Shown here in pieces: positions 593 through 32,910 of a DNA stretch of 33,888 bases. The notes beneath the pieces are model-generated. The model did not search any database, was not told where the DNA came from, and worked only from the letters and a program-made list of their open reading frames with translations. A program made the translations under genes and the position numbers. Origin of the DNA: a virus. Taxonomy: Duplodnaviria > Heunggongvirae > Uroviricota > Caudoviricetes. The first letter of the stretch is position 1, and the number at the start of each line of letters is the position of its first letter. The DNA lies in the IMG/VR virus record IMGVR_UViG_2718218355_000003, positions 1 through 33,888 of that record; one strand, 5' to 3'.

Positions 593-837
593 TGCTACCC
601 CTCCATTTAACGTGATGCTTCCGTTATTTTTAGTTGCACTATGCAGATTCTAGCTGACTGAATCTTTGATTAAAAGTTCTTCTATGCTCATAACTCGATC
701 TCGTAAGAATCTCAACTTGTATAAATTTATTAACATAAATATATACTAATAATTAAAATAGTTGCGTTTGCTGCCATAATATGCAGTTAGCCATTACAGA
801 AGATGAATATTTAACCATAGGTAAGATATAAACTGGA

Positions 838-900
838 TGGTATAAAATACCTAGGTGAGTAACTAATTATATTTAATTATTTTGGATATTAGTCACTCAC
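838..900 (-). terminator. hairpin terminator candidate downstream of the two-gene AT-rich cassette
   Basis: 14-bp inverted repeat GGTGAGTAACTAAT / ATTAGTCACTCACC (1 mismatch) around a 20-nt AT loop, directly after the stop of the 917..1321 gene; U-rich tract follows on the minus strand. Confidence 0.4.
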
Positions 901-916
901 CGTGGTATTAGGGAAA

Positions 917-1321
917 CTAAATACTCTCTTGGTTCTTTTTGATTGTTTTTAGAGTTTTCAGATAATGGTTTTTCCTGTCAAAACTTTGTTTTACTAATTC
1001 TTTATCGGTTGGTGATAAATTTTCTATGTCATCCAATGTAAACTCATCTTTTATTTTTTCTTGTAGCATTCTCTCAAGCTTTTTATATTTCCTGATGGCG
1101 ATTTTGTTGTAAAACCAATTAACCATAAGAGGAAGAAATAAAGATATAAATACAGTCGACTTACTATAGTTTTCTATTCCTATTATATCCTTCACCCGCT
1201 CAGAAAAAGGCAGGGTGAGTATAATGCTGGCAATAATTGAAGCCAGAAAACCGTATGCCAATCTACGGACATCGTGGTTAGCCTCCTGGATTGCGGGAAT
1301 TGTGTCATTAGTTTTTGACAT
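917..1321 (-). CDS. small inner-membrane protein, two predicted TM helices plus Lys/Glu-rich C-terminal tail (unknown function)
   Basis: 134-aa ORF, ATG start, strong RBS GGAGGAGAAGGGG. Hydrophobic segments LAYGFLASIIASIILTLPF and STVFISLFLPLMVNWFY, then a charged tail. AT-rich codon usage unlike the flanking phage genes. Overlaps the upstream gene by 14 nt. Confidence 0.6.
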   Translation of the reverse strand: MSKTNDTIPAIQEANHDVRRLAYGFLASIIASIILTLPFSERVKDIIGIENYSKSTVFISLFLPLMVNWFYNKIAIRKYKKLERMLQEKIKDEFTLDDIENLSPTDKELVKQSFDRKNHYLKTLKTIKKNQESI

Positions 1322-1868
1322 GCCCCTTCTCCTCCGCGTTTTGTTTATCTATCATCTTTATAGAACTTTCATCTATAAACATACTGGCTTCCAGGAGGGC
1401 AATTATCATGCTTCCCAAAATAGAGGACAGTCTAATTGATGCTTTTTTTGAATCATCATTTTTTCCATCGTATTTTGAATAACCAAAATAATCTTCGAAT
1501 AGAAGGCTTTCAATGTCATCAAAGAAGAAAAAGGATGTAGTTGTAACAATTATTGGTTTTTTGTCTATTATCTGAAACTTTACATTTGTTTTATTGAATT
1601 TAATTGATGTGTCATTAACTATCTTAACTAGCTCCATCATGTTATTTGCTACTGGGCGATTAACTATACTCATTGTGAGTGATGGAGAAAATCCTGAATC
1701 ATCAAAATTCAAATAATACTGAATTACAGGTGATTCATCTTTGTCTTCTTTATCTATGAAACTTTGTATTATTTTTTTATTTAAAGTCGAGCCATCACTT
1801 TCATTATATAATTCAATATTATCATCATGTCTAAGGGCTACACTATCGCGAATCAAATCAATTAACAT
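1308..1868 (-). CDS. acidic soluble hypothetical protein (186 aa), first gene of the AT-rich cassette
   Basis: Track ORF 1308..1874 begins with a TTG; first ATG is 2 codons in (MLIDLIRDS...), preceded by GAGG. AT-rich, Asp/Glu/Lys/Ile/Asn-rich; no motif I recognise. Co-oriented with and overlapping the membrane-protein gene. Confidence 0.55.
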   Translation of the reverse strand: MLIDLIRDSVALRHDDNIELYNESDGSTLNKKIIQSFIDKEDKDESPVIQYYLNFDDSGFSPSLTMSIVNRPVANNMMELVKIVNDTSIKFNKTNVKFQIIDKKPIIVTTTSFFFFDDIESLLFEDYFGYSKYDGKNDDSKKASIRLSSILGSMIIALLEASMFIDESSIKMIDKQNAEEKGHVKN

Positions 1869-1895
1869 TATCAAAAGACCTCAATTGTTATTTCA

Positions 1896-1935
1896 TGCGT
1901 AATTATACTAAAAGTATCTTAAAAACAGCAACATT
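1896..1935 (-). promoter_or_regulatory. candidate sigma70-type promoter of the AT-rich cassette
   Basis: On the minus strand TTGCTG-N18-TATAAT lies about 30-60 nt upstream of the 1868 start codon. Read by eye. Confidence 0.3.
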
Positions 1936-2092: not shown

Positions 2093-3193
2093 TCACTCTG
2101 TTTCTGCTATCCATTCCGGGATTTTTGCTTCAAGCTCAAGCTGTGTGGTAAAGCCACTGTTATCAATAGAATGCTCAACTTTTGCAATAATCCAGTCCTG
2201 ATTGTCGATGTCGCTTTTAAAGCCTGCCACCGTGCCATGCATTTCGGGGTAGAGTTCAGCGCGACCACGTGCCAGCGTGATGGAGAATGATGCGGCTCCG
2301 CGTTGTAGCTGTTGCCACTTTGCCGCCGCTGCGCGTCTTGCTGCCTGCTCGTTCTGATAAGTCTTGCGTAACACAAACACGTTGCCTTCCGCGCCTTCCA
2401 TATAGTCGCCTTCCCGGCTGCTGCTTTTCTCCTTTTTCGGTTTGCGGCGTTTCACGCTGACTTTTTTCTTTTTCCCGTAATTAAGATCAAGCCAGTAGGC
2501 GCGTACACCCGTATACGCCTCGCGGTCAGCAATGCGAAACTGATGGCGATCGCCGCTGCTGCGTGTGATGGCAAACGATGGCAATGGTTTTCCCTGCGCG
2601 TTCACGCCACCGCCTGGCATGATGAATAACAGATTACCGCTTTTTACCGTGGTGATTGCGCCCAGCATTTCCGCCATGCGCGTAAGAAAGGACATGTCGC
2701 TTTCTTCGGTCTGGTCGGCGTGGTCGATTTCGATATCCATCAGCATTTCGCTGATTTGCGGTTTCAGACCGTACCGATGAGCGATGGCGGATACCACACG
2801 CTCAACGGTCACATCATGCCAGGACACCTCACGTTTAACGTTAAATTCATCCCGAAAATCTGCGCTTCTGGCTGAAACAGTCAGCCTGTCCGGCGGTCCT
2901 TCGTGAGCGATTTCATCAACAATGTAAGTGCCTTTTTCTGTCAGCGGTTCTCCTTTCCAGCCAATGAGAACCGTCAGGCGCGCGCCCCGTGGCGGTAGCT
3001 GCAACTGACCATCCGCATCATCCAGCGTGATGGTGAGCTGGTCCGCCTCAAATCCCCGGTTGTCGGTCAGTGACAGGCTCATCAGGCGCTCTGCCACGCC
3101 TGACAGCGTTTTACCCTCCGCGAGAATATCAAAATCCGGCATTTTCACGGGGTCTGTGCCCTGACTGAGCAATTGCATGGTGGTGTCGGTCAT
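2093..3193 (-). CDS. D: tail protein D (late control gene D family)
   Basis: 366-aa ORF with P2 gpD-like size and composition. Start set at the ATG (MTDTTMQLL...) preceded by GGGAGGG; the track ORF extends upstream to 3325 without an RBS. Confidence 0.8.
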   Translation of the reverse strand: MTDTTMQLLSQGTDPVKMPDFDILAEGKTLSGVAERLMSLSLTDNRGFEADQLTITLDDADGQLQLPPRGARLTVLIGWKGEPLTEKGTYIVDEIAHEGPPDRLTVSARSADFRDEFNVKREVSWHDVTVERVVSAIAHRYGLKPQISEMLMDIEIDHADQTEESDMSFLTRMAEMLGAITTVKSGNLLFIMPGGGVNAQGKPLPSFAITRSSGDRHQFRIADREAYTGVRAYWLDLNYGKKKKVSVKRRKPKKEKSSSREGDYMEGAEGNVFVLRKTYQNEQAARRAAAAKWQQLQRGAASFSITLARGRAELYPEMHGTVAGFKSDIDNQDWIIAKVEHSIDNSGFTTQLELEAKIPEWIAETE

Positions 3194-3350
3194 CTGTTCC
3201 CTCCCTGTGCGGCATGGTCGCATGTGCGTGCGGAGGGGGTTACTGCTTTTTGTTGTCGCCGGGTCGGGAGAACGGCGCAGGGGTGAGATTACGCGCGTGG
3301 TGGGTGATGATTGTTGCCGAATCATTTAACGGATACAAGGGGCTGAAGCT
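3194..3350. promoter_or_regulatory. divergent intergenic region between D (minus) and FI (plus); presumed late promoters
   Basis: 157-bp gap between divergent starts. No canonical TGT-N12-ACA Ogr site could be confirmed by eye. Confidence 0.3.
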
Positions 3351-4535
3351 ATGAGTGAAACTCGTTTTCATGGTGCCCGTGTTACGGAAAATACCGACCT
3401 GGTAACAGCGATTAACGATGTTGATTCCAGCGTTATCGGTATCGTGGCAACGGCGGATGATGCGGACGCGAAGCTGTTCCCGCTGAACAAGCCCACACTG
3501 CTGACCCGCGTCAATGACGTGCTGGGAAAATGCGGGACAACGGGGACGCTTTATCGTGCACTTAAGGCCATCGCAGACCAGGTGAGCACAAAGGTGATCG
3601 TCGTTCGCGTGGCTGAACACAAAGAAGAAGACGGAAAGACGCAGGATCAACTGGTTATCGGTGGTTCTGAGGATGACGGCAGCTATACGGGGATGTATGC
3701 GCTGCTTGTTGCAGAGCAGGATGAAAGCATCGGATACCGTCCGCGTATTCTGGCCGCGCCGGAGCTGGACACGGAGGCTGTAACAAAATCCCTGTGCGTG
3801 ATTGCAGGTAAACTGCGCGCGTTTGTGTATGCCTCATGTTACGGCTGTAACACGATGGCTGAGGCGATTACCTACCGCCAGAAATTCAACGAACGTGAGG
3901 TGATGCTCTTATGGCCGGACTTCATCGCCTACAACCCGAAAAGTGGCAAAAACGAAACGTTCCCCGCGCCTGCCTATGCGTGCGGCCTTCGTGCGTACAT
4001 TGACCATGAGCAGGGCTGGCACAAATCATTGTCCAACGTTCCGGTTAAAAATGTGCTGGGGATGTCGAGGCATGTGTTCTGGTCGTTGCAGGCCGAAGAC
4101 AGCGATGCCAACAGCCTCAACAACAAAGAAATCACGACCATTATTCGTCGCAACGGGTTCCGCTTCTGGGGCAACCGCACACCGGAAACGAACGCCTACA
4201 TCTTTGAGGTGTATACCCGAACCGCACAGGTGCTGGCTGATTCAATTGCGGAAGCGCAGTTTGAAACCATCGACAGTCCACTGACGCCTGCGAATGTGAA
4301 GGATGTTATCAGTGCCATCAGGGCAAAACTGGATTCGCTGGTTACTGCCGGGAAACTGATTGGTGCGGAGTGCTGGTATGACGTGGTGGATAACGGCACC
4401 ACGAATTTACGTCAGGGGCGTGTGCGTATTCGCTACAAATATACGCCCGTTCCGCCACTGGAAGACATGGAGCTTTACCAGACGTTTACTGATGAATTCT
4501 TTGGTCCCGCATTTGCGGTGCTGGGAGGTGCCTGA
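3351..4535 (+). CDS. FI: contractile tail sheath protein FI
   Basis: 394 aa; contains GFRFWGNRT and the YTPVPPLE C-terminal motif matching P2 gpFI; ATG start. Confidence 0.9.
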   Translation: MSETRFHGARVTENTDLVTAINDVDSSVIGIVATADDADAKLFPLNKPTLLTRVNDVLGKCGTTGTLYRALKAIADQVSTKVIVVRVAEHKEEDGKTQDQLVIGGSEDDGSYTGMYALLVAEQDESIGYRPRILAAPELDTEAVTKSLCVIAGKLRAFVYASCYGCNTMAEAITYRQKFNEREVMLLWPDFIAYNPKSGKNETFPAPAYACGLRAYIDHEQGWHKSLSNVPVKNVLGMSRHVFWSLQAEDSDANSLNNKEITTIIRRNGFRFWGNRTPETNAYIFEVYTRTAQVLADSIAEAQFETIDSPLTPANVKDVISAIRAKLDSLVTAGKLIGAECWYDVVDNGTTNLRQGRVRIRYKYTPVPPLEDMELYQTFTDEFFGPAFAVLGGA

Positions 4536-5047
4536 TGGCTGTACCAAAACATCTTCGCTTTTTTACGTTGTTTGTGGATGGTGAAAACGAAGTGGGCAAA
4601 GTGACATCCGTCACGCCGCCCAAACTGACGCGCAAAACCGACAGCTATCGTGGTGGTGGCATGATGGGGGCGGTAAGTATTGATCTCGGTCTGGACGACT
4701 CCGCGCTTGATGCGAGTTTTGTCATGGGGGGAGCTGTTCGTGCGCTGTTCCTTAAATATGGCGGCACGATTGACGGCACGCTGCTGCGTTTTGCGGGTGA
4801 ATACTACACCGATGCAGAAAGCGATCTGTATGAAATCGAGATGCGCGGGCGTGTGACGGAAATTGATATGGGGGAAGCCAAACAGGGCGAAGCCACATCA
4901 CACACTTACGCTGTCAAAAACACCTACTACAAGCTGAGCGTTAACGATCGCCCGCTGTGGGAAATCGACCTGTTGAACCACATCTACCGGAAGGACGGCA
5001 AGGACATTGTGCCTGACCGTATCCGTTCCGCGCTTGGGCTTGGCTGA
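4535..5047 (+). CDS. FII: tail tube protein FII
   Basis: 170 aa, start ATG overlaps the FI stop (TGATG); size and position match P2 gpFII. Confidence 0.88.
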   Translation: MAVPKHLRFFTLFVDGENEVGKVTSVTPPKLTRKTDSYRGGGMMGAVSIDLGLDDSALDASFVMGGAVRALFLKYGGTIDGTLLRFAGEYYTDAESDLYEIEMRGRVTEIDMGEAKQGEATSHTYAVKNTYYKLSVNDRPLWEIDLLNHIYRKDGKDIVPDRIRSALGLG

Positions 5048-5102
5048 TAAGTAATATGCAGGCGGCGCAGTGCGTCGCCTCTGACTGAAAAGGAGACAAC
5101 TG

Positions 5103-5477
5103 ATGAAAGACATCGATACTGAAACCCGGAATAACACCGTGGCGGATGATGTGACGGCAGGTGAGGATATGGCTGTCGAACGTGGCGTAAAACTGACCCG
5201 ACCAATTGAGCGTGGTGGCGAAAAAATCACGTATGTGGAGATCACCGGGGCTATTGAGCAGGCTGGATCCCTGCGTGGTCTGTCGCTGTCTGATGTGCTG
5301 AATCTGAAAGCGGATACCATGTTTACGCTGTTGCCTCGCGTGACCTCGCCACGACTGGATGAAGTGATGATTAAAAAAATGTCGTCACGCGATTTTATTC
5401 AGTTGTGCGCTGTGGCTGTAAATTTTATGAGCGAGCCAGACTCTGGCGCGAAGAGCGTGCAGGAGACGGCAGCGTAA
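5103..5477 (+). CDS. E: tail assembly chaperone E
   Basis: 124-aa ORF with AAGGAG RBS, located between tube and tape-measure genes as in P2. Confidence 0.7.
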   Translation: MKDIDTETRNNTVADDVTAGEDMAVERGVKLTRPIERGGEKITYVEITGAIEQAGSLRGLSLSDVLNLKADTMFTLLPRVTSPRLDEVMIKKMSSRDFIQLCAVAVNFMSEPDSGAKSVQETAA

Positions 5478-5641
5478 TCACCCTGGTGTGCTTTGAGCAC
5501 ATCGAAGATCTGGTGGCGGATATTGCCGCCATTTTTAACTGGTCGCCCGCCGAAATCTTCATGATGACGCCCGGCGAAGTGGTTAGCTGGCGTGAGCGGG
5601 CGGCACTTCGTAGCGGGAATGCAGACAATGAAGACTCTTGA
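5103..5641 (+). CDS. tail assembly chaperone E+E' (predicted -1 programmed frameshift product)
   Basis: The -1 frame is open from about 5375 to 5641 and overlaps the 3' end of E; an A7 tract at about 5373-5379 lies where both frames are open. Mirrors the P2 E/E' and lambda G/GT arrangement. Confidence 0.5.
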
Positions 5642-8435
5642 TATCCGGGTCGCTTTCAGCGCCGTTGACAGGCTGACCCGGCCTGCCGAAAACGCCCGCC
5701 GCCTGATGGGGCAGTTTGGTGACTCCATCCAGCGAACGCAGGGGGCGATCAAAAATCTCGAGCGTCAGGCGCGATCATTTGAGCGCGCCCGTGACGCTGT
5801 CAGTAAAGCGGATGCGGGCATCGTGAAAGCACGACGCCAGCTTAACGCCCTTAATCAGTTACAACGCACGGGTACAGTGCTCAGCGAAAAACAACAAAAG
5901 CTGATGCAGCAGTTAAGCACCCGGCTTGAACGCCTGAATGAATCGCGCACACGGGAAATTCAGAAAATGCGGGAGCTTGGCGGAGAGCTGAAACGCCACG
6001 GCATTTCCCTGACAGGCAGCGATAACACCATCCAGCAGGCCATCAGACGCACCGAACAGTACAACAACCAGCTTGAACGCGAACGGCAGGCGCTTGCGCG
6101 TGTAACACGAGCGCGTGAGCGGTATTCGCGCGCGCAGGAAACAGCGGGAAAACTGAAAACAGGTGGTGCGCTGGCAATTGGTGCGGCAGCGGCGGGCGGC
6201 TATGCTGCCGGGCGTTTTTTGCAGCCTGCGATCGGGTTCGGCAAAGAGATGTCCCGCGTTCAGGCACTGACGCGAATCGACCAGAACAGCCCGCAGTTTA
6301 AGGCGCTGCGTGAGCAGGCGTTAAAACTTGGCTCTGAAACGCAGTTCACCGCAGGCGATGCCGCCAGTGGACAGGCATTTCTTGCAATGGCTGGCTTTAC
6401 ACCACAGGCCATTCAGGCTGCGCTCCCTGGCGTACTGAGCATGGCAACGGCTGGCGGTATGGACCTCGGTGAGACGGCGGATATTGGCTCAAATATTCTG
6501 ACGCAGTTCGGTCTTTCTGCTGACCAGATGGACCGGGTCGGCGACACACTCACCGCAGCGTTTACCCGTACCAACACTGACCTTCGCGCACTGGGTGAAA
6601 CCATGAAATATGCAGGTCCGGTGGCGGGTAAGCTGGGAATATCGCTGGAGCAGGCCGCAGCGATGGCGGGCGTACTGGCGAATATGGGTATCAGGGGGAG
6701 TGATGCTGGTACGGCAATGCGTGCCAGCCTGGCTCGTCTGGCATCACCGCCAAAGGCGGCAGCAGAGGCGCTGAAAGAGCTTGGCGTGTCTGTCTCGGAT
6801 GCCGGGGGCAAAATGCGCCCGATGGAGGATGTGCTGGCTGACCTTTATAAAGCTACCCGCAAATACGGGGAAGTTGACCGGGTATCGTTCTTTAAGGACA
6901 TTGCCGGAGAAGAGGCTTTCACATCATTTATGGCCCTCGTTGATGCGGCAGGTGACGGCTCCTTACCCAAACTGAGAAAAGAACTTGAAGGCGCGCGCGG
7001 TGAGGCTGAACGCACGGCAAAGGTTATGGCCAACAACCTTGACGGCGATCTGAAATCACTCAGCAGTGCATGGGAAGGGTTGCGCATCCGCATTGCAGAT
7101 CTGATTGACGGTCCGCTGCGTTCTGTCACGCAGTGGCTCACGCGTGTGGTATCAAAGGTGACGGCGCTGGCGCAGGCCCATCCCGCACTGACGCGCCAGC
7201 TACTGATTGCAGGCGGTGCACTGCTGGCAATGACTGCAACGGTTGGCTCGTTGTCGCTGGCTATTGGTGTGCTTGCTGGCCCGCTGGCAAAACTGCGTCT
7301 TGGTTTTTCCCTCCTGACCGGATCAATGAATGCTGTCAGGGTTCTGCCAGCACTATGGGGAATGGTGACGGGTTCCGTTTCTTTACTGGGAGGCGCTATC
7401 GGGGCGTTGTTCAGTCCGGTTGGTCTTATCGTGGCTGCGCTTGCCGGAGCTGCCGTTCTTATCTGGAAATACTGGGATCCCATCAGGGCATTTTTTGCCG
7501 GGGTGTTCAGCGGGATTATGGAAAGGCTGACCCCGTTGCGCGAAACCTTTGAACGGTTTGGTCCTGTTTTTGACGCAATCGGGAGTGGGATCAGCCAGGT
7601 GTTTAACTGGTTTAAATCGCTGCTGTCACCGATGGAGTCCAGCAAGGAAACTCTGGATAAATGTACCAGTGCTGGCGAGATATTCGGTAACGTTCTTGGC
7701 GGTGCGTTACAACTTGTTCTGACACCTGCAAAAATGTTGCTGGATACGCTGGCGTGGATACTTGAAAAGCTTGGTGTGCTTCCGGATGAAGCGGAAAGGG
7801 CGCGCAAGAAAATCGAAGACGCACAGCGTGCGGCCATTCTTCAGGACAAGGTTGCCTTGCTTCAGGGGGACCTGGCGAAAATCAATCCGCCGAAGCCTGT
7901 GGAAAATGGCAATGGCTCCGGAGGTGATAACCCCAAAGACAATAAACCGCTCACAGACAGCAATACCGGTACGCTGCGCAGACTCAGCAAAATTGCTGAT
8001 AACACAGGTAAGCTGGTTGAGGAGACGAAAAAACGCATTGGCCCCGGCGATATTGTCTTTAAAAACCTGCCCCGAGCACTTGCTGTTCGTGGGGAGTGGC
8101 AGGAGCGGAAGATTGCGCAGGTCAGTAAGCCTGCCCCCGCAATTAATATCACACCCGTGGTCCCGGCTCCGCTGCCTCCGGCGCTGGTCCCTGTTGTTGC
8201 GGCCAGCTCCCGCCCGGTGGCGGAGGCTATACGATCTCCAGTGGCATCAGTTCCTGTAACTTCCCGTAACCGGGAGCCTGTTGCCTCCGGATTTGGTGGT
8301 GAAATTCATGTTCATCTGCATAACGTTGTTACGCAGAATCCCCGCGAACTGGCGAAACTGGTCGGTGAAATGGTCAGGGCAGAAATGGAACGGCGCGCCC
8401 GTGCCGGGCGTGGCAGTTTTTACGATAAAGATTGA
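5619..8435 (+). CDS. T: tail tape measure protein T
   Basis: ~940-aa ORF with a long Ala/Gly-rich hydrophobic central region, after the E/E' chaperone pair. Track ORF begins at a GTG at 5592; first ATGs at 5619 and 5628, so the start is uncertain. Confidence 0.85.
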   Translation: MQTMKTLDIRVAFSAVDRLTRPAENARRLMGQFGDSIQRTQGAIKNLERQARSFERARDAVSKADAGIVKARRQLNALNQLQRTGTVLSEKQQKLMQQLSTRLERLNESRTREIQKMRELGGELKRHGISLTGSDNTIQQAIRRTEQYNNQLERERQALARVTRARERYSRAQETAGKLKTGGALAIGAAAAGGYAAGRFLQPAIGFGKEMSRVQALTRIDQNSPQFKALREQALKLGSETQFTAGDAASGQAFLAMAGFTPQAIQAALPGVLSMATAGGMDLGETADIGSNILTQFGLSADQMDRVGDTLTAAFTRTNTDLRALGETMKYAGPVAGKLGISLEQAAAMAGVLANMGIRGSDAGTAMRASLARLASPPKAAAEALKELGVSVSDAGGKMRPMEDVLADLYKATRKYGEVDRVSFFKDIAGEEAFTSFMALVDAAGDGSLPKLRKELEGARGEAERTAKVMANNLDGDLKSLSSAWEGLRIRIADLIDGPLRSVTQWLTRVVSKVTALAQAHPALTRQLLIAGGALLAMTATVGSLSLAIGVLAGPLAKLRLGFSLLTGSMNAVRVLPALWGMVTGSVSLLGGAIGALFSPVGLIVAALAGAAVLIWKYWDPIRAFFAGVFSGIMERLTPLRETFERFGPVFDAIGSGISQVFNWFKSLLSPMESSKETLDKCTSAGEIFGNVLGGALQLVLTPAKMLLDTLAWILEKLGVLPDEAERARKKIEDAQRAAILQDKVALLQGDLAKINPPKPVENGNGSGGDNPKDNKPLTDSNTGTLRRLSKIADNTGKLVEETKKRIGPGDIVFKNLPRALAVRGEWQERKIAQVSKPAPAINITPVVPAPLPPALVPVVAASSRPVAEAIRSPVASVPVTSRNREPVASGFGGEIHVHLHNVVTQNPRELAKLVGEMVRAEMERRARAGRGSFYDKD

Positions 8436-8447
8436 GGAGTCATGGCC

Positions 8448-8936
8448 ATGATGATGATCTACGGCATGTTTGTTTTTGAGCTGCGCACGCTGCCGCATCA
8501 GCAGTTACAGCAAAACAAAAGCTGGCGGCATGTGAAAAATGAACGCGTTAACCGTTCAGCAAGCTGGCAGTATATCGGTGCAGGTGATGATCGCATCGTT
8601 CTTTCTGGTGTGCTTTATCCTGAAATTACAGGTGGCGAAGTGTCGCTGTCGCTGCTGACCACGCAGGCGTATACAGGACGACCCTGGCCTTTGATTGATG
8701 GCGTCGGGCAGATTTACGGCATGTATGTCCTGACTGAAACGAATACGACCCGCTCCGAGTTTGATCGCTACGGTAAGGCGAAAAAGATAGAATTTTCACT
8801 GACTCTTGAACGCTGTGATGAGGATTTGCGGGAGCGCCTGCAATCCTCATCGTTCAGTGATATGCTGTCCGGCTTCAAAGATAAGGTGACATCATCTCTT
8901 AACAGCGCGGCCAGTTCAGTTAAAGGGCTGTTCTGA
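8448..8936 (+). CDS. U: tail protein U
   Basis: MMMIYGMFVFELRTLPHQQLQ...SWRH resembles P2 gpU (MMMVLGLFVF...). GAGGAG RBS; start taken at the second ATG. Confidence 0.85.
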   Translation: MMMIYGMFVFELRTLPHQQLQQNKSWRHVKNERVNRSASWQYIGAGDDRIVLSGVLYPEITGGEVSLSLLTTQAYTGRPWPLIDGVGQIYGMYVLTETNTTRSEFDRYGKAKKIEFSLTLERCDEDLRERLQSSSFSDMLSGFKDKVTSSLNSAASSVKGLF

Positions 8937-8944
8937 TTTAACAC

Positions 8945-8982
8945 AAAAAACCGCTAATGGTCAGATTAGCGGTTTTCATTTT
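8945..8982. terminator. bidirectional intrinsic terminator between convergent U and invertase genes
   Basis: A-run, 8-bp stem CCGCTAAT/ATTAGCGG with 6-nt loop, then T-run; overlaps the invertase stop codon. Confidence 0.5.
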
Positions 8983-9565
8983 CCTGAGTCTGCCCGGTTG
9001 TTTCTTCAGTCTGTATATCGCCTACAGGGTGATAACGATAAATCGTCGATGTGCCAATGCCGTAAATTATTGCCAGTTGTTTTCTGTCGTGCCCGTTTTT
9101 GATTAGCCTTGCTATTTGCTCATGCTGTTCTTTTGTCAGCTTCGGTCGACGTCCGCCTGTGCGCCCCCTTGCGCGCGCTGCCGCCAGCCCGGCCAGTGTA
9201 CGTTCAACAATTAATTCACGTTCCATTTCAGCCAGGGCACCCATCACGTGGAAGAAAAAACGCCCCATTGGAGAAGATGTGTCTATGCTGTCGGTCAGAC
9301 TGCGAAAATTAATCCCTCGCTCCCGTAGTTCCCCGACGAGAGAAATCAGATGTTTCATGCTTCGCCCGAGGCGATCCAGTTTCCAGACAACCAGCGTGTC
9401 ACCTTTTTGAAGGCGCTTTAAAGCGCGTTTTAATCCCGGTCGGTCTGTCTTTGTCCCGCTTAATTTATCTTCAAATATTTGTTCACATCCTGCACAAACA
9501 AGAGCGTTTCGTTGCAGGTCTGTATTCTGGTCATTTGTTGATACCCTTACATAGCCAATCAGCAC
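8966..9565 (-). CDS. serine DNA invertase (Hin/Gin/Cin/Pin family)
   Basis: LIGYVRVSTNDQNTDLQRNAL... N-terminal catalytic-serine motif and C-terminal HTH (GIGTSTIYRY). Likely GTG start at 9565; the track ORF starts at a TTG at 9583. Confidence 0.85.
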   Translation of the reverse strand: MLIGYVRVSTNDQNTDLQRNALVCAGCEQIFEDKLSGTKTDRPGLKRALKRLQKGDTLVVWKLDRLGRSMKHLISLVGELRERGINFRSLTDSIDTSSPMGRFFFHVMGALAEMERELIVERTLAGLAAARARGRTGGRRPKLTKEQHEQIARLIKNGHDRKQLAIIYGIGTSTIYRYHPVGDIQTEETTGQTQENENR

Positions 9566-9619
9566 ACTGAATCTCCCGTCCAAAAGCGCAAATCATGCCA
9601 TGCAGGCCAGAAACGGCCA

Positions 9620-9645
9620 TTATTTAAAACCTCGGTTTACGAGAA
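9620..9645. other. inversion crossover site (hix/gix-like 26-bp site), left
   Basis: TTATTTAAAACCTCGGTTTACGAGAA is an inverted copy (about 20/26 identical, shared 12-bp core ACCTCGGTTTAC) of the site inside gene H at 12298-12323, and resembles the remembered Mu gix site. Confidence 0.6.
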
Positions 9646-10341
9646 CTCGGCACAAGCGGGGAGAAAATACCGTTACTCAGTACAGCGAATACCTGGACCA
9701 ATCGACAAACATTCAGCGGTGGCCTTTCTGGGGAACTGTCCGGCAATGCCGCTACTGCAACAAAGCTGAAAACAGCACGAAAAATTGCTGGAGTTGGTTT
9801 TGATGGTTCTAGCGATATTTCAATTAGTGCCAAAAATGTCAATGCATTTGCACTCCGACAAACAGGTAATACTGTTAATGGTGATACATCCGTTGGATGG
9901 AATTGGGATAGTGGTGCATATAACGCCCTGATTGGTGGTGCATCTGCATTAATTCTTCACTTTAATATAAATGCTGGTAGCTGTCCTGCCGTACAATTCC
10001 GTGTGAATTATAAAAATGGTGGCATTTCCTACAGGTCGGCTCGTGATGGTTATGGGTTTGAATTAGGTTGGTCAGATTTCTATACCACGACACGAAAACC
10101 TTCAGCGGGAGATGTTGGTGCATATACGCGGGCAGAATGTAACTCAAGGTTTATTACAGGTATTCGCCTTGGCGGTCTGTCATCTGTTCAGACATGGAAT
10201 GGTCCCGGCTGGTCTGACAGGTCAGGTTATGTCGTTACGGGTTCAGTTAACGGAAACCGTGATGAATTAATTGATACAACACAGGCAAGGCCAATTCAGT
10301 ATTGCATTAATGGGACGTGGTATAACGCGGGGAGTATTTAA
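9631..10341 (+). CDS. alternative tail-fibre C-terminal cassette (start-less, silent in this orientation)
   Basis: Frame open from the crossover site with no start codon; begins NLGLRELG... (H has YLGLQET at the crossover) and ends ...RPIQYCINGTWYNAGSI, paralleling the H C-terminus ...RPIQKYINGTWYNVAQV. Confidence 0.7.
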   Translation, partial: LGLRELGTSGEKIPLLSTANTWTNRQTFSGGLSGELSGNAATATKLKTARKIAGVGFDGSSDISISAKNVNAFALRQTGNTVNGDTSVGWNWDSGAYNALIGGASALILHFNINAGSCPAVQFRVNYKNGGISYRSARDGYGFELGWSDFYTTTRKPSAGDVGAYTRAECNSRFITGIRLGGLSSVQTWNGPGWSDRSGYVVTGSVNGNRDELIDTTQARPIQYCINGTWYNAGSI

Positions 10342-10343
10342 CG

Positions 10344-10877
10344 ATGATGCACTTAAAAAACATTACTGCTGGCAACCCTAAAACAAAAGAGCAATACCAG
10401 CTAACAAAGCAATTTAACATCAAATGGCTTTATTCAGATGATGGAAAAAACTGGTATGAGGAACAAAAGAACTTTCAGCCTGATACGTTGAAAATGGTCT
10501 ATGACCACAACGACGTTATTATTTGTATTGAAAAGGATGTTTCAGCAATTAATCCAGAAGGCGCAAGCGTCGTTGAGGTTCCTGATATTACAGCAAATCG
10601 CCGGGCTGATATTTCGGGTAAATGGATGTTCAAAGATGGCGTAGTGATAAAGCGAACTTATACCGAGGAGGAACAGAGGCAGCAGGCAGAGAATGAAAAG
10701 CAAAGCCTGTTGCAACTTGTCAGGGATAAAACCCAGCTATGGGACTCACAGCTACGGCTGGGCATCATTTCCGACGAGAATAAACAAAAATTAACCGAGT
10801 GGATGCTCTACGCGCAGAAAGTCGAATCCACAGACACCTCCAGCCTGCCAGTAACATTTCCCGAACAACCTGAATGA
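10344..10877 (+). CDS. alternative tail-fibre assembly chaperone (Tfa, G-like)
   Basis: 177 aa; N-terminal ~110 aa nearly identical to the minus-strand Tfa at 10906..11433 ([22 protein letters not shown]...), C-terminus diverged. Confidence 0.8.
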   Translation: MMHLKNITAGNPKTKEQYQLTKQFNIKWLYSDDGKNWYEEQKNFQPDTLKMVYDHNDVIICIEKDVSAINPEGASVVEVPDITANRRADISGKWMFKDGVVIKRTYTEEEQRQQAENEKQSLLQLVRDKTQLWDSQLRLGIISDENKQKLTEWMLYAQKVESTDTSSLPVTFPEQPE

Positions 10878-10880
10878 GAC

Positions 10881-10910
10881 AAGGCCCTCTATCGGGCCTT
10901 AATTTTTATT
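10881..10910. terminator. hairpin between the two convergent tail-fibre assembly genes
   Basis: AGGCCC-TCTATC-GGGCCT stem-loop followed by TAATTTTTATT. Confidence 0.4.
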
Positions 10911-11433
10911 CAGGCTTTTGTGGCCATTCAGGATTTGCCGTATCCACACGGTTGACCAGAACACTGTAACGTTCCCATGCTTCCAGTCGTGTGCGTTCCT
11001 CGTCTGTTGCCATATTCAGCCTGACAGCGCGTTCCAGCGGCTGGATGACTGATTCAGCTTCGGAAAGCAATGCGGTCTTTTGTGATTCTGCCTGTTGTTG
11101 CTGCTCATCTGTCGTATAAATCCGTTTAACCACAGTTCCGTCCTTAAACATCCACTTCCCTGAATCATCGGCACGACGATTGGCTGTTATATCTGGAATC
11201 TCAACGACACTAAAGCCTTCGGGATTAAGCGTTGAGGCATCTCTGGTGATAGCGACAATAATATTATTTTCATCGTAAACAATCTTTATTGTGTCTGGCT
11301 GAAAGTTCTTCACTTCCTCATACCAGTTTTTTCCGTCTTCGGACCATAACCAGATAACATCAAAATTCTTTGTTAGCTGATATTGCTCTTTTGTTTTTGG
11401 ATTACCTGACTTAATGTTCTTTAAATGCTGCAT
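10906..11433 (-). CDS. G: tail-fibre assembly chaperone G (expressed orientation)
   Basis: 175 aa directly downstream of H on the same strand; Tfa-family N-terminal region. Confidence 0.85.
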
Positions 11434-11436
11434 AAC

Positions 11437-13587
11437 TTACACCTGCGCAACGTTATACCATGTGCCATTGATGTATTTTTGTATCGGCCTGAAGATGGCT
11501 TCATCATCGCCATCTACTTCACCAATGATTCTTAATCCGGTAATCGTGTGTCCGGCTTTTTCATAACGACCACCTCGCGCCATCAATTGAACAACTCGCG
11601 TACCCAGGCGAACATCTTTCACATAGCGGGAATCAAAATTTCCCCAGTTGCTGGGTTGCATCTGACCGTTAACAGCAAATATTACCGAGTTATCTGTATT
11701 TCGCTGGCTATAGAAATGCCATCCGGCCTCATCGCCTAACTCTGCAACCACTGGACGGGTGGAAGCACCCCATAAATTAAAGGTAATATTCTTCGTGGAT
11801 GTATTAGAGCTGGATAGCGAGAACTTTTTACTATCACCTGCCTGAATATTTTTAAAAGCAATAGCAACTCCATTCTGAAAGCGGAATACTCGCTGACTAT
11901 TAGCGTAAACATCCAGAATACCATCACCATTCTGTTTGAATCCGGTGTCATTATCACCAAGAACAATAGAGCTACCACCTAACGCATTCGTCGTACCAAC
12001 TCCAAGACTGCCATTAATGACGGCATTTACCAGAATATTTAGTGCATCCCATTTCAGCGTCATCAGGTCTTTTGTTGTGGTGCTCTGGCGGCTTCTCCAT
12101 TTGAAATATTCATTGCCGTTGTCGCCTGTTTCAAACCACATGTATGAATCAGTGTCACCATCAGCATCATTTTTAAATCCAATCTTCGCCCAGTCAGTAT
12201 TTCGAATCCAGGCAAGGATTGAGTCATTTTCAAAAGTAAGCCCACCGGACAAGGTATCGCCATTTTTTTGCACGGCGTTACCAGCCCTGTTTACCGTTTC
12301 CTGTAAACCGAGGTATTCGATAACGGCGGCAACGGTCGATTTCGCAAGAATATCCCGCCCGATTTTTGTCAGAGTTGCCAGGCTGGCGACATCATTCCCC
12401 GTAAAATACGGAAACCTGTCTGCCGCAGTAGCAAGCCCGGCCAGCGCCGTCAGGGTGGCATCTTTCGGTTGCTTACCCGCAAGCGCGTTAGTCATGGTGG
12501 TCGCAAAATTCGGGTCGTTGCCCAGCGCCGCAGCCAGCTCGTTCAGCGTGTTCAGTGCATCAGGTGACGAATCTACAAGGGCGGCAATTGCAGCCATAAC
12601 GAAAGCCGTGCTTGCGATTTGGGTATTATTCGTTCCCTGTCGCGCAGTTGGTGTTGTTGGCGTTCCGGTCAGCGCCGGGCTGTTTAATGGGGCTTTCTTA
12701 TTTGTTTCATCCATTACCGCCTTAACCGCTTTCGATGTCGCGGCCAGTGTTTCAGACGTGCTGTTGGTGGCACTACTGAGCTGGACAATCCCTTTTTGTG
12801 CTGTCGTGGCGTCCTGAGCGGTATATTTTGCGTTAGCAAGATCATACGCGGCCTTTACTGCTTTCGGCGTTGCAGCCTGCGTTTCAGACGTGCTGTTGGT
12901 GGCGCTACTGAGCTGGACAAGGCCTTTTCGCGTCGTGCTGGCATCCTGCGCAGTATATTTACCGTTAGCAAGATCATACGCGGCCTTAACCGCTTTCGGC
13001 GTTGCAGCCTGCGTTTCAGACACGCTGTTAGTGGCGCTACTGAGTTGAACAAAGCCTTTTGCGGTCAGCGAGGCGTCCGGGTGACGTCGTGACTGTTCAT
13101 GCTCTTTCAGTTTGTCATCCACGTAATCCACTGTGGCCATCACCATGGTGTTATTCACGGTAAGCGCCACGGTGGCCGTGCTGGATACGGTCAGAATGGT
13201 GCGAAATGTTTGTGCGCGTCCGGACCCTTCGGCAACGATTGGCTTGTAACTTTCGGCAGTATTGCCCACCGCGATCAAATCGCCGTGCTCATCAAACACA
13301 CCAATTTCCCGGATCCAGAATCCGCCCGTTTCAGGAGGAATAAGCAGCTCCGCAATAATGCGGTTCTGATGTGTTGCGTCCAGGATGACGCGATTAACAG
13401 TATGTCGCCACACCTCATGCACCAGACGGGTCTGCTTACTGTCTGGTGTGGGCAACGTGCCGCCACCGTCGCCCACGGCCATATGAGTCAGGCGAACAGG
13501 CTTACCATCTGGCGCGGCTGCCTGAGCTAATTTTTTGGCACCTGTATCGGTGATAACGGTTTTAAATTTTCGTGTTGTGGTACTCAT
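11437..13587 (-). CDS. H: tail fibre protein H (constant N-terminal part plus invertible C-terminal part)
   Basis: 716 aa in the P2 gpH position; internal tandem ~41-aa repeats; C-terminal third lies inside the invertible segment. Confidence 0.85.
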   Translation of the reverse strand: MSTTTRKFKTVITDTGAKKLAQAAAPDGKPVRLTHMAVGDGGGTLPTPDSKQTRLVHEVWRHTVNRVILDATHQNRIIAELLIPPETGGFWIREIGVFDEHGDLIAVGNTAESYKPIVAEGSGRAQTFRTILTVSSTATVALTVNNTMVMATVDYVDDKLKEHEQSRRHPDASLTAKGFVQLSSATNSVSETQAATPKAVKAAYDLANGKYTAQDASTTRKGLVQLSSATNSTSETQAATPKAVKAAYDLANAKYTAQDATTAQKGIVQLSSATNSTSETLAATSKAVKAVMDETNKKAPLNSPALTGTPTTPTARQGTNNTQIASTAFVMAAIAALVDSSPDALNTLNELAAALGNDPNFATTMTNALAGKQPKDATLTALAGLATAADRFPYFTGNDVASLATLTKIGRDILAKSTVAAVIEYLGLQETVNRAGNAVQKNGDTLSGGLTFENDSILAWIRNTDWAKIGFKNDADGDTDSYMWFETGDNGNEYFKWRSRQSTTTKDLMTLKWDALNILVNAVINGSLGVGTTNALGGSSIVLGDNDTGFKQNGDGILDVYANSQRVFRFQNGVAIAFKNIQAGDSKKFSLSSSNTSTKNITFNLWGASTRPVVAELGDEAGWHFYSQRNTDNSVIFAVNGQMQPSNWGNFDSRYVKDVRLGTRVVQLMARGGRYEKAGHTITGLRIIGEVDGDDEAIFRPIQKYINGTWYNVAQV
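12298..12323. other. inversion crossover site (hix/gix-like 26-bp site), right, inside H
   Basis: TTCCTGTAAACCGAGGTATTCGATAA closely resembles the remembered Mu gix site; encodes the conserved LGL tripeptide at about H residue 426. Confidence 0.6.
12700..13071 (-). repeat. three tandem ~123-bp coding repeats within H
   Basis: Protein repeats ...QLSSATNS(V/T)SETQAATPKAVKAAYDLAN(G/A)KYTAQDA... three times; the DNA repeats are nearly identical. Confidence 0.8.
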
Positions 13588-24846: not shown

Positions 24847-25220
24847 GACTCTCCAGCTCCTGTATCAATCAGATAATTTCACGACGCTTTCCTGCTGATT
24901 GCCATCATCGACAGTCAGACTCTTACGCAATCCCACCGCGTTGACTGCATGTTCTCGCCGTCTCAGTGCGATTTTGACGGCCTTACCTTTCACCCCATCA
25001 AATCAAAAGCTCTCACGTCTTTTTCATGCTCAGCGTGAGAAATATGGCCATTCTGTTGTGTCGCTGCGACATCGTTCAGGGAATGCTATTTACCCCCTGA
25101 AACGCGGGCTGTTCCCCCGTCACCTGCGCGCAGAAAAAGCGCGTTTTTTTGTGCACGCACGGATCCTTGACGGATCCAGCCGCCATGCGGGCCGGAAGGG
25201 TAAAAAGTCGTTCAAAAAAA

Positions 25221-25250
25221 TTGTGCAAATTTGTGCACTATTGTGCAGAA
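25221..25250. repeat. three TTGTGCA iterons phased at exactly 10 bp (a fourth copy near 25149)
   Basis: TTGTGCAAAT TTGTGCACTA TTGTGCAGAA in the non-coding cos-proximal region, with palindromes GGATCCTTGACGGATCC (about 25161-25177) and GGGCGAT...ATCGCCC nearby. Confidence 0.5.
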
Positions 25251-25286
25251 GGGCGATGCGCGATTATCGCCCTGGTTTGAGGGGGA

Positions 25287-25877
25287 TCAGGTGTTATTTT
25301 TATCTGTCGTCAGTGGGCTAAACCATCCACGATTCACATCGCAGGACTGATGCGTTCTGTCCTCGTGTTTCTCCTGCCACAATGCTTTTCCGCCAGCCTT
25401 TATGATGGCTCTTTCAACATCCCGCTCGTATCGCAAGGGCTGAAATACGTCATTAATGAAATATTCGCTTATGTCCGGAAGCGATACTGCAAAATTATTT
25501 GTTTGTTGCGCCGTCCTGCTATGCAGCCAAGCGGCATACTTTAATGCGTCCTGTGCTTTCTGGAATTTAAGTGCATAGTCAGTGGCGATTTTTTCCAGTT
25601 CAGCGATTCGGTTGTCTTTGGTTTCCAGCCAATCAAGTAGCGCCAATACTTCAGGATCCCCGACATCCAACACTGTTACGCGTGATTTTTCATAATGTTC
25701 GTCAGCAAGAGTTCGGCCAATTTTGAAATCTCCATCATCACCATAACCGGAGCAGGCATAAACAACCTGTGCTCCAGATATTCGCTGAATTGACATTTCC
25801 TCGCCGCAAATAGGGCATTTCGGTACTGGCACAGGTGAATAACGTTCACGTAATGCCTGATAGTTGATTTCGCTCAT
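25287..25877 (-). CDS. hypothetical protein with N-terminal Cys-rich (zinc-ribbon-like) motif, 196 aa
   Basis: ATG with AAGGAGAA RBS; CPICGEEM...YACSGYG motif; no confident family assignment. Third gene of the accessory block downstream of A. Confidence 0.6.
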   Translation of the reverse strand: MSEINYQALRERYSPVPVPKCPICGEEMSIQRISGAQVVYACSGYGDDGDFKIGRTLADEHYEKSRVTVLDVGDPEVLALLDWLETKDNRIAELEKIATDYALKFQKAQDALKYAAWLHSRTAQQTNNFAVSLPDISEYFINDVFQPLRYERDVERAIIKAGGKALWQEKHEDRTHQSCDVNRGWFSPLTTDKNNT

Positions 25878-25940
25878 TAAGTCGTTCTCCTTGTTTATGT
25901 TCTGAGGTGGAGAGCAGGGCGAACTCGCCCTGATGTTGTG

Positions 25941-26252
25941 TTATTCAGGAAATAACGCCCGGATATTTCCGGCCATCTGACTGGTTATCTGTGCGGTTGA
26001 TACTGGCTGTGATGCGGGGCGTTCTGTCCTGGTTTGTGTCACTGATAACGCTTCATCACCAGCCCATGCAGCCAGTCGATAAGCCTCTGCCGGATTCATT
26101 TTCAGAAGTGCCAGCCCGGCCAGAAAAGCCACGCGTTGGCCGCTTTTGCGGGCTTCTGGTGTAAGGCTGTCCAGCCAGGCGCATGCTTCTCCTTCGTTCT
26201 TGACGGCGGTGGGCTTCAGATAGAAACTTATCCGTCTGGTCGGAGTCGTCAT
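25941..26252 (-). CDS. parR: ParR/StbB-like partition adaptor protein
   Basis: 103 aa starting MTTPTRRISFYLKP, 4 nt downstream of parM; weak resemblance to R1 ParR; GGAG RBS. Confidence 0.55.
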   Translation of the reverse strand: MTTPTRRISFYLKPTAVKNEGEACAWLDSLTPEARKSGQRVAFLAGLALLKMNPAEAYRLAAWAGDEALSVTQTRTERPASQPVSTAQITSQMAGNIRALFPE

Positions 26253-26256
26253 TGGT

Positions 26257-27216
26257 TTACTCCTTGTCCATTGCGTACAGCCCATTAACCAGAGCAAACT
26301 GTGGCACCCCGTCCGCGATGAAAGTCGCATTAACTCCGCAGGCTTCGCGGATAGCGGGTGCCACAATCTCCGCCCCGCCACCGACAACCATCACCCGCCC
26401 GTAACCCGAAAAACCCGCCAGCGCGCGGATCACGCGTTGTTTCAGTGTTTCTTCCTTTTCACGAATAACCGCCATCAGGCTGGCGTAATGCGCGTCATTG
26501 TGGATGTGCTGGCGCAGCCAGGCTTCATCATGGCGATGTTCAATAATGGTATTGGCGATGTGGTGACTGGTGCGCATACCGTTAGTGGCCATCACCGATA
26601 GCACGGCATCGGCCATCAGTGAAACACCTACGTGTGGATCGCAAAACACCTGGCTGATACCTGCCAGTTGTCCCTGAACCTTTGCCACATCCAGCGTGGT
26701 TCCGCCCAAATCCACAATCAGCAGGGATTCAAACGGACTCATGTCAGCCAGTGCCTTAAAGCCTGCCGGAATGGATTCAGGCATAACCCGCACGTTACGG
26801 ATAGTGAATGCCTCACCGTTCTGGTACTCCACCGGGCGCATAACGTTCGCTTTTTTGCGGTTGATGTTGGTCATATCCGGCTGTGCGTTTGTGTCGAAAT
26901 ACTCGCTCAGTGGCAGGGTGACAACCACATCCACTTCCTGTGGCGTAATACCTGATTTGACCAGCGCATGATGAATGGCAATGACATTCACATCGCTGTA
27001 CTGGTATTGAGTGTCGGTCGTCTGGACAAAGCGATCGCTGACCGGATCAAAACCATAGCGTACGCCATCAAGCATGTAGTTCGCGGGCTGCGTGCCACCG
27101 AACGGCGCAGACCATTCCGACTTGAAGCTGTTCGGGCTGATGGCGTTGCGGCGTTCGCCGTTCTCAGTCCATGCCAGCTTGATGTTGGTGGAGCCGTCGT
27201 CGATACAAATTTTCAT
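26257..27216 (-). CDS. parM: ParM/StbA-like actin-type partition ATPase
   Basis: MKICIDDGSTNIKLAW...YSDVNVIAIHHAL...LIVDLGGTTLDV matches the ASKHA phosphate-1/2 motifs and overall pattern of plasmid R1 ParM. Confidence 0.8.
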   Translation of the reverse strand: MKICIDDGSTNIKLAWTENGERRNAISPNSFKSEWSAPFGGTQPANYMLDGVRYGFDPVSDRFVQTTDTQYQYSDVNVIAIHHALVKSGITPQEVDVVVTLPLSEYFDTNAQPDMTNINRKKANVMRPVEYQNGEAFTIRNVRVMPESIPAGFKALADMSPFESLLIVDLGGTTLDVAKVQGQLAGISQVFCDPHVGVSLMADAVLSVMATNGMRTSHHIANTIIEHRHDEAWLRQHIHNDAHYASLMAVIREKEETLKQRVIRALAGFSGYGRVMVVGGGAEIVAPAIREACGVNATFIADGVPQFALVNGLYAMDKE

Positions 27217-27249
27217 GTCGCTTTTCCTTATGTTGATTAATTAATCGTT

Positions 27250-32549: not shown

Positions 32550-32861
32550 ATGTCAATAGAGATATCAAAGAAGCTAAAAGCAATTCGAGAATCTGAGGGG
32601 CTTAGTCAGGCAAAGTTCGCGGATTCAATAGGTATTGCGGTTGGTACGGTTAAGCAATACGAGACTGGTATTCGAGGTGTGGGAACGGAGGTTTTACTGA
32701 AAATCACAATGCACCCGGAATTTAAAAAATACACTACGTGGTTGATGAGTAACGAAACAAATGAGGCTGCTGGGCAGATCAGTCCTTCTCTCTCCCCTGA
32801 TGGGCCAGAAAACACATCGTCTTCTCAAAAGCCCCGCAAGACTGGTACACAGCCCGGCTAA
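32550..32861 (+). CDS. C: immunity repressor C (HTH, P2 C family)
   Basis: MSIEISKKLKAIRESEGLSQAKFADSIGIAVGTVKQYETG HTH, and EFKKYTTWLMSNETNEAAGQISPSL matching the P2 C tail (QFTKYTLWFMTNQIAPESGQIAPAL). Confidence 0.85.
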   Translation: MSIEISKKLKAIRESEGLSQAKFADSIGIAVGTVKQYETGIRGVGTEVLLKITMHPEFKKYTTWLMSNETNEAAGQISPSLSPDGPENTSSSQKPRKTGTQPG

Positions 32862-32910
32862 TCATGGAACGCTGGGGGCATGGTGGTCTTGTAACGCTGG
32901 GGTTTCACGA

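Follow-up and report, generated by a model that had tools for sequence, protein, structure and literature searches.

SieB of phages lambda and P22, a prophage-expressed abortive exclusion protein, halts macromolecular synthesis midway in infection by a mechanism that is still poorly understood (PMC10883804). It is specified by a single gene, whose inhibitor Esc is made from an internal start. The RexA and RexB proteins of lambda, one cytoplasmic and one a small inner-membrane protein, form a two-gene prophage module, and TY-fold chaperones have been predicted computationally as parts of other conflict systems (PMC9503650). Two papers on the hotspots of P2 name A–Q, int–att, int–A and a tail-gene slot (PMC9122126, PMC13586616). 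Here we describe an AT-rich cassette of two genes, g1 and g2, that encodes an acidic cytoplasmic protein and a small basic membrane protein and that lies between the tail gene D and the late-gene activator gene ogr in a stretch of 33,888 nucleotides (nt), hereafter the window (positions 1 to 33,888 of IMG/VR record IMGVR_UViG_2718218355_000003). This block, a moron, is an accessory operon that was gained by horizontal transfer and that occupies the boundary between the gpD and ogr operons in a P2-like prophage. Because it is a rare acquired operon in a slot where sister prophages carry anti-phage genes, the cassette is a credible defence candidate.

The window is a complete P2-like Escherichia coli prophage with 100% identity to strain M10 (NZ_CP010200). 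It is bounded on the left by a hok/gef gene (1–141) and ogr and on the right by the integrase gene (32761–33888), and in E. coli this prophage occupies at least three chromosomal integration sites (ihfA, greA and ytfP/yidD). The GC content is 0.26–0.31 over positions ~600–2000 versus 0.52–0.58 in ogr, D and the tail genes, while in P2 itself the D–ogr gap is 81 bp and contains only the ogr promoter. These data agree with a first-pass annotation of the sequence, which had pointed to a block far more AT-rich than its flanks at a position where P2 has no genes. That annotation drew the block at 838–1935 (~1.1 kb); the insertion itself is upheld by blastn alignments to the empty site of a Salmonella relative (L025) and to two loci with alternative cargo (L024 and L026), and its extent is revised. 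As the alignment to the empty site places the inserted DNA at ~638–2082, the unit measures ~1.45 kb and not 1.1 kb. In this alignment the insert is bordered by the microhomology GCAACT(T/A)A. On the D-proximal side, the non-coding leader of the insert contains a GC-rich hairpin (1965–1983) with a T-run on the plus strand only, and the leader is partly common with the L026 cargo locus, the homology reaching window position 2051. The spacer at the opposite end harbors no open reading frame (ORF) of at least 40 amino acids (aa), and, since an Rfam search of the whole window gave no match, it contains no known RNA.

The D–ogr junction is itself a site of variable cargo. It is empty (41–45 bp) in Salmonella and Symbiopectobacterium relatives, and a search with an empty-site query (L025:1000–5590) showed that 1642 (~30%) of the 5426 complete E. 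coli genomes contain the prophage lineage. When an evenly spaced sample of 38 full-length prophage matches in E. coli was considered, the D–ogr query span was uninterrupted in 19 and carried an additional 0.9–2.8 kb in the other 19, and in all four occupied loci that were inspected the insert was positioned between gpD and ogr. The occupants include GmrSD_N+HNH, PIN_4 and PifA-like proteins (Table 1), and the single-gene cargos that encode a 386-aa protein (L024) and 340-aa proteins (L026 and L033) are putative defence candidates in their own right. Further occupants named by RefSeq, their position unchecked, are DUF2971, YecA/SEC-C and ParA proteins and insertion sequence (IS) elements. As befits a moron, the cassette is present in some and absent from other phages that are otherwise collinear, and its site can hold other cargo instead. 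Like the P2 hotspots at A–Q (old/tin), Z/fun and S–V (orf30), D–ogr is AT-rich, non-essential, located at an operon boundary and variably occupied, and it carries defence genes in sister phages; the junction is not named in the two papers on P2 hotspots (PMC9122126, PMC13586616). The D–ogr hotspot appears not to have been described explicitly before.

Several features of the cassette indicate that it is a self-contained unit. The last 14 nt of g1 are also the first 14 nt of g2, the ATG of which is preceded by GGAGG, and an identical 14-nt overlap is found in a 53%-identical homologue (L019). Comparison with three natural variants (L002, L004 and L022) yielded ratios of nonsynonymous to synonymous substitution rates (dN/dS) of 0.16–0.19 for g1 and 0.35–0.38 for g2; hence both genes are under purifying selection, and g2 evolves faster than g1. 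Downstream of g2 is a terminator-like hairpin with a folding free energy of −25 kcal/mol (z = −6.6; none of 200 shuffled sequences was equally stable), the loop of which, at 20 nt, is of atypical length. In variant L002, which is 93% identical, the conservation of the hairpin is 98%, and the homologous cassettes each end in a hairpin of their own. Thus, the two overlapping genes and the 14-bp-stem hairpin of the first-pass annotation were both recovered. Its TTGCTG-N18-TATAAT promoter fared less evenly: the sequence is present, with a −10 TATAAT that is invariant among variants 93–96% identical, but the site does not stand out from the AT-rich background. The −35 TTGCTG drifts among these variants and matches three of six consensus bases, a consensus scan passes over it, and the AT-rich stretch is not enriched in promoter-like sites relative to shuffles; a promoter at 1902–1931 is for these reasons graded only as plausible on sequence grounds. 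The upstream regions of the homologous cassettes cannot be aligned, and so no promoter common to them can be assigned. The base composition and the hairpin are thus those of a moron, whereas a promoter of its own is only plausible.

Homologues of the two proteins are scarce. The family comprises ~5 clusters among 5.8 billion proteins, g1 being represented by one full-length cluster. An exhaustive HMMER search with g1 of 1.8 billion representatives returned six matches and added P0007 (truncated, 49% identity to g1) and P0009 (full-length, 31%), and a profile search added P0012 (53% identity to g1); P0008 and P0011 were rejected as repeat-protein artefacts. P0006 is a homologue of g2 with 50% identity. 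The cassette is carried by 2 of the 5426 complete E. coli genomes and by none of the deposited phage genomes, and scans of viral and metagenome contigs provided no further contexts.

The pairing of the genes is maintained even among homologues with no more than 30–50% identity. Each g1 homologue that is not truncated at the end of a contig precedes a g2 homologue with two transmembrane (TM) helices and a charged tail: P0012 is followed by a 138-aa two-TM protein (L019) and P0009 by a 122-aa two-TM protein (L015–17; 31% and 30% identity, respectively), while in L003 a g1-type C-terminal tail is followed by P0006. As for the check suggested in the first-pass annotation, the homologous pairs do sit at variable prophage positions, in four different phage settings, three of them besides D–ogr (Table 1). 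One of these, the S–V gap, is the exact position of the non-essential orf30 in P2. In all contexts the cassettes are AT-rich islands, with a GC content of 0.22–0.33 in DNA of 0.5–0.6. Because the pair is kept while its contexts vary, and because the cassettes are AT-rich islands with their own hairpins, the two genes bear the sequence signature of one mobile moron unit.

The g2 protein is basic (isoelectric point, pI, 9.4) and contains two hydrophobic helices (residues ~21–38 and ~55–72), the first of which is strongly hydrophobic (Kyte-Doolittle value of 2.2 over 17 residues). The helices are connected by a 16-residue loop with a net charge of zero and are followed by a charged tail of 62 residues that has a net charge of +5 over its first 15, in accordance with the two TM helices and charged tail noted at first pass. 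The hydropathy and the loop and tail charges predict an N-in/C-in topology with a cytoplasmic helical tail. Both hydrophobic helices are conserved in all g2 homologues, which have lengths of 122–138 aa, and the residues that are invariant in the family cluster in three places: a juxtamembrane N-H-x-[VL]-[RY]-[RK]-L motif, TM2 and the tail.

Among described proteins, SieB is the one to which g2 repeatedly leads. The PHROG of SieB (phrog_6399) matched one g2-family member only, with E = 0.0048, and the SieB alignments were co-linear in four independent comparisons (g2 residues 14–122 against SieB residues 16–125). Both proteins are prophage-encoded and begin with an N-terminal two-helix hydrophobic hairpin, after which come a basic segment and a charged region. 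In contrast, g2 lacks the C-terminal ~60 residues of SieB (~185–200 aa), and its proposed partner is the product of the upstream gene g1 rather than of an internal start. The resemblance is therefore best described as a recurring, sub-threshold lead from sequence comparison and not as a demonstrated relationship.

The g1 protein is acidic (pI 4.75) and cytoplasmic. AlphaFold2 modeling from the single sequence was useless, with a predicted local distance difference test (pLDDT) score of 35; an alignment of five sequences rescued the model (pLDDT 81, predicted template modeling score 0.79). The resulting model displays an alpha/beta domain (residues ~1–131) resembling type III secretion chaperones and YbjN, followed by a C-terminal amphipathic helix (residues 138–181). 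As Foldseek finds only matches with low template modeling scores (TM-scores) for g1, the predicted type-III-secretion-chaperone/YbjN-like fold is held at moderate confidence; among those low-scoring matches, histidine-kinase catalytic domains and biotin ligases were not trusted as relatives. A hydrophobic stretch at residues 147–165 was considered as a TM helix or tail anchor and rejected: because its hydrophobicity is absent in the homologues P0009 and P0012, the 45-residue C-terminal helix is not transmembrane. Neither g1 nor P0009 nor P0012 has a Pfam or NCBIfam match, including to CesT or YbjN, and the g1 family profile finds no PDB sequence. The predicted g1 model shares the characteristic alpha/beta fold of the TY-chaperones AmyR (5fr7), ExsC (3kxy), SycN (1xkp) and SicP (1jyo). 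Unlike them, it carries the additional C-terminal helix, shows only 7–11% identity to their sequences with no profile match, and has no secretion system in its context; Foldseek also does not rank these four structures first for g1.

The first-pass annotation saw in g1 and g2 a cytoplasmic sensor and a membrane effector of the RexAB type, with no sequence resemblance to any named system. The latter statement holds, as neither protein has a significant match in Pfam, PADLOC, PHROGs or NCBIfam, the same is true of the distant homologues, and the family profiles matched no sequence in the PDB. Of the kinship to RexAB, the loose architecture survives, together with, by proposal only, damage to the membrane upon infection. 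Homology does not: hhalign comparison of the g1-family alignment with lambda RexA and of the g2-family alignment with lambda RexB resulted in probabilities of 0.4% and 0.1%, respectively. Moreover, RexB has four TM helices and g2 two, RexA is a protein of 279 aa without a chaperone-like fold assignment, and lambda rexA and rexB are located in the immunity region downstream of cI. The designation of g1 as a sensor is one possibility, and the predicted chaperone/YbjN fold agrees no less well with a role as partner or regulator of g2. For this foreign, self-contained two-gene unit in a slot that also takes defence cargo, an exclusion or defence role is plausible from the context.

From this context and architecture, the best-supported reading, which we adopt tentatively, is that the prophage expresses the cassette as a phage-exclusion module of the abortive-infection type. 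It is the reading toward which the hotspot context, the mobility, the conservation of the pair, the translational coupling, the complementary charges of the two proteins and the predicted topology of g2 converge. As a mechanism, we propose that g2 would insert into the inner membrane as an N-in/C-in hairpin with its basic, charged helical tail facing the cytoplasm, and that g1, produced in coupled stoichiometry and predicted to have a peptide-binding secretion-chaperone/YbjN-like fold, would keep g2 inert by binding to one of its cytoplasmic parts, the tail or the conserved N-terminal NH-x-V-R-R-L motif. When a foreign phage infects the cell, one of its products might displace or titrate g1 or be captured by it, and g2, so freed or activated, could oligomerize and breach the membrane in a holin-like or SieB-like manner, stopping the infection. 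Expression in the lysogen, the binding of g1 to g2, toxicity, the membrane damage and any anti-phage effect are what we infer in this model. With considerable doubt, we further suggest that g1–g2 may constitute an undescribed anti-phage system in which a chaperone-fold, peptide-recognizing sensor or guard gates a minimal SieB- or holin-like two-helix effector.

A number of observations weigh against an exclusion module. No family among the 5027 models of PADLOC-DB 2.0 matches either protein at E ≤ 1, and a literature search by protein accession retrieved no paper that mentions them. The similarity to SieB is put at 14–18 bits, and the profile PF14163 scores three g2-family members at 12.8–15.4 bits, below the Pfam cutoff of 26; hhalign of the g2 family against SieB, with alignments co-linear over the two-TM hairpin, gives a probability of 4.7% with lambda SieB alone and 8.7% with a lambda/P22/673R7 profile, both profiles being very shallow. 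For g1, two of five models were confident, from an alignment of only five sequences, and Foldseek searches of PDB and BFVD returned only matches with a TM-score below 0.4. Promoter-like sites number nine in the AT-rich stretch versus 7.7 expected from shuffles. The family is, moreover, extremely rare, which would be uncommon for a defence of broad utility. Finally, the argument from the slot is one of guilt by association and is weak, as the slot also holds IS elements, ParA and YecA/SEC-C proteins, and the position of the insert was checked in 4 of the 19 occupied loci.

Among other readings of the cassette, one is superinfection exclusion at entry, whereby g2 in the inner membrane would block DNA ejection or translocation and g1 would serve as its assembly or stability factor, with no death of the cell. 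P22 SieA and T4 Imm are exclusion proteins that block entry. A small, prophage-encoded inner-membrane protein such as g2 would suit this role, to which the hotspot context applies equally. However, the known entry blockers are single genes, whereas the dedicated, coupled cytoplasmic partner of g2 suggests regulation of a potentially harmful protein; in addition, the predicted periplasmic loop of ~16 residues offers little surface to an ejection conduit, and hhalign of the g2 family against P22 SieA finds nothing. We therefore consider an entry block unlikely.

The overlapping genes, with an acidic soluble protein encoded upstream of a small basic membrane protein, might also be taken for a toxin-antitoxin (TA) or addiction pair that stabilizes the prophage, in which g2 would be a membrane toxin and g1 a labile antitoxin or chaperone, and which would have no primary anti-phage role. 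The faster evolution of g2 than of g1 and the hok/gef toxin gene already located at the same prophage end accord with such a pair. Yet no TA family in Pfam, NCBIfam or PADLOC matches either protein, the genes differ in order and length from what is typical of type II TA systems, and an integrated prophage has little need of addiction. Moreover, many TA pairs in hotspots prove to be defence systems, so that this explanation, improbable as it stands, overlaps with the exclusion module.

It is very unlikely that the cassette mediates a lysogenic conversion unrelated to phages, with g1 acting as a class I chaperone for a hairpin-TM substrate, g2, exported by type III secretion, or with the two proteins forming a YbjN-like stress or envelope regulator pair. 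The homologues reside in unrelated phages and the slot is populated by defence genes, the strongly hydrophobic TM1 of g2 favors insertion into the bacterial membrane over export, and no Pfam CesT or YbjN sequence match was obtained. Lastly, an accessory role in the phage's own cycle, as a holin/antiholin-like lysis-timing pair or a late membrane factor, is highly improbable, for although g2 has the layout of class II holins (two TM helices, N-in/C-in, with a charged C-terminal tail) and the cassette follows the late gene D in the same orientation, it is located outside the lysis cassette, has its own −10 and terminator, encodes at 134 aa a g2 larger than class II holins, and, being absent from >99% of otherwise near-identical prophages, is dispensable.

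Table 1 Features of the cassette, its flanks, the cargo of the D–ogr slot and the contexts of the gene pair (window coordinates unless a locus is given)
Feature	Position	Strand	Basis or remarks
ogr, late-gene activator, hotspot flank	332–592	−	PF04606
Inserted AT-rich block, D–ogr hotspot cargo	638–2082	−	blastn boundaries, GC profile
AT-rich non-coding spacer, hairpin to ogr upstream region	638–852		215 bp
Terminator-like hairpin	853–904	−	14-bp stem, 20-nt loop, then U-rich tract; UAGGUAUUUUAU
g2, 134 aa	917–1321	−	ORF; homologues
g1, 186 aa from ATG	1308–1868	−	in-frame TTG upstream at 1874
Candidate sigma-70 promoter	1902–1931	−	TTGCTG (1931–1926), 18-nt spacer, TATAAT (1907–1902)
D-proximal non-coding leader of insert	1941–2082	−	promoter scan, variant comparison
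gpD, tail protein, hotspot flank	2093–3193	−	PF05954
D–ogr cargo: GmrSD_N+HNH protein			inspected locus
D–ogr cargo: PIN_4 protein			inspected locus
D–ogr cargo: KAP-type NTPase, PifA-like			PADLOC PifA, E = 1e-64
D–ogr cargo: 340-aa protein	L033 4074–5096		opposite strand
D–ogr cargo: 340-aa protein	L026 568–1590		opposite strand; weak HEPN_RiboL-PSP match, E = 1e-4
D–ogr cargo: 386-aa orphan	L024 3639–4799		opposite strand; no family match
Context 1: D, g1, g2, ogr in this order			E. coli P2-like prophage
Context 2: g1 then g2, convergent on the 3′ end of a GC-rich gpD gene	L003
Context 3: gpS–gpV gap	L015–17		Klebsiella/Erwinia-type P2-like phage
Context 4: between tape measure gene and integrase gene	L018, L019		unrelated prophage

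Some observations on the loci themselves bear mention. Two plus-strand promoter-like sites in the spacer, at 730–759 (10 of 12 consensus bases) and 753–780 (with a TG extension), would read antisense into g2. RefSeq represents gpD (window 2093–3325; L001 9494–10338) as a shortened 'VgrG/Pvc8 family' protein of 263–266 aa plus a small pseudo-ORF, and the sequence holds an unbroken 366-aa reading frame that is called by other gene finders. A P2 prophage end of E. coli type is present on the contigs of L024 ('Vagococcus sp. WN89Y') and L026 ('Planococcaceae bacterium UBA3378'), the protein identity being 91–98% for gpD and, for Ogr, 99% (L024) and 72% (L026); the taxon labels of these contigs probably reflect contamination or mis-binning. 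P0007 (L018 10001–10348) ends in ...LLYTSPSPRD at the contig end, which we take to be an apparently translated Nextera adapter, and the protein is on this account an assembly-truncated artefact and not a short variant. At L015, the ORF upstream of the S–V cassette (22–354) matches the C-terminus of Phage_tail_S and starts with ...IPNNDIPRLL, near-identical to the N-terminus of gpV (IPKNDIPRLL, 1559–2200); this repeat around the cassette may be a duplication scar of its insertion.

Elsewhere in the prophage, the FI-FII-E-T-U tail block (3351–8936, plus strand) has the opposite orientation to gpD, which is not the case in P2, and adjoins a Gin/Cin-type invertase gene (8966–9583, minus strand; Resolvase+HTH_7) and duplicated tail-fibre/assembly ORFs (10003–10877, plus strand, versus 10906–13587, minus strand). 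More than 1100 E. coli genomes share this layout (3351–13587). The classical A–Q hotspot (24899–27240) contains no defence system recognized by PADLOC; its cargo encodes a ParM/StbA actin-like partition ATPase (26257–27216), a Plasmid_stab_B protein (25941–26387) and an Ead/Ea22-like protein (25287–25877). The hok/gef-family toxin gene (PF01848, E = 4e-7) is situated at the extreme prophage end beyond ogr, and no Sok-like RNA accompanies it at the Rfam gathering threshold.

Were the cassette to exclude phages, it would add parts that are new to defence, namely a protein with a type III secretion chaperone/YbjN fold and a two-TM effector. The ecological weight of a family this extremely rare is small, and candidate systems in P2 hotspots are already numerous; at two genes and 1.45 kb, the cassette is small enough for rapid genetics. 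Roughly one in two of the sampled D–ogr slots is occupied, and since the occupants include PifA-like, GmrSD, PIN and HEPN-like proteins as well as several unannotated genes, a search of this slot might yield further systems. If the exclusion reading is true, g1–g2 would provide a tractable two-component relative for SieB-type exclusion, and gpD–ogr would be a further defence hotspot of P2-like phages.

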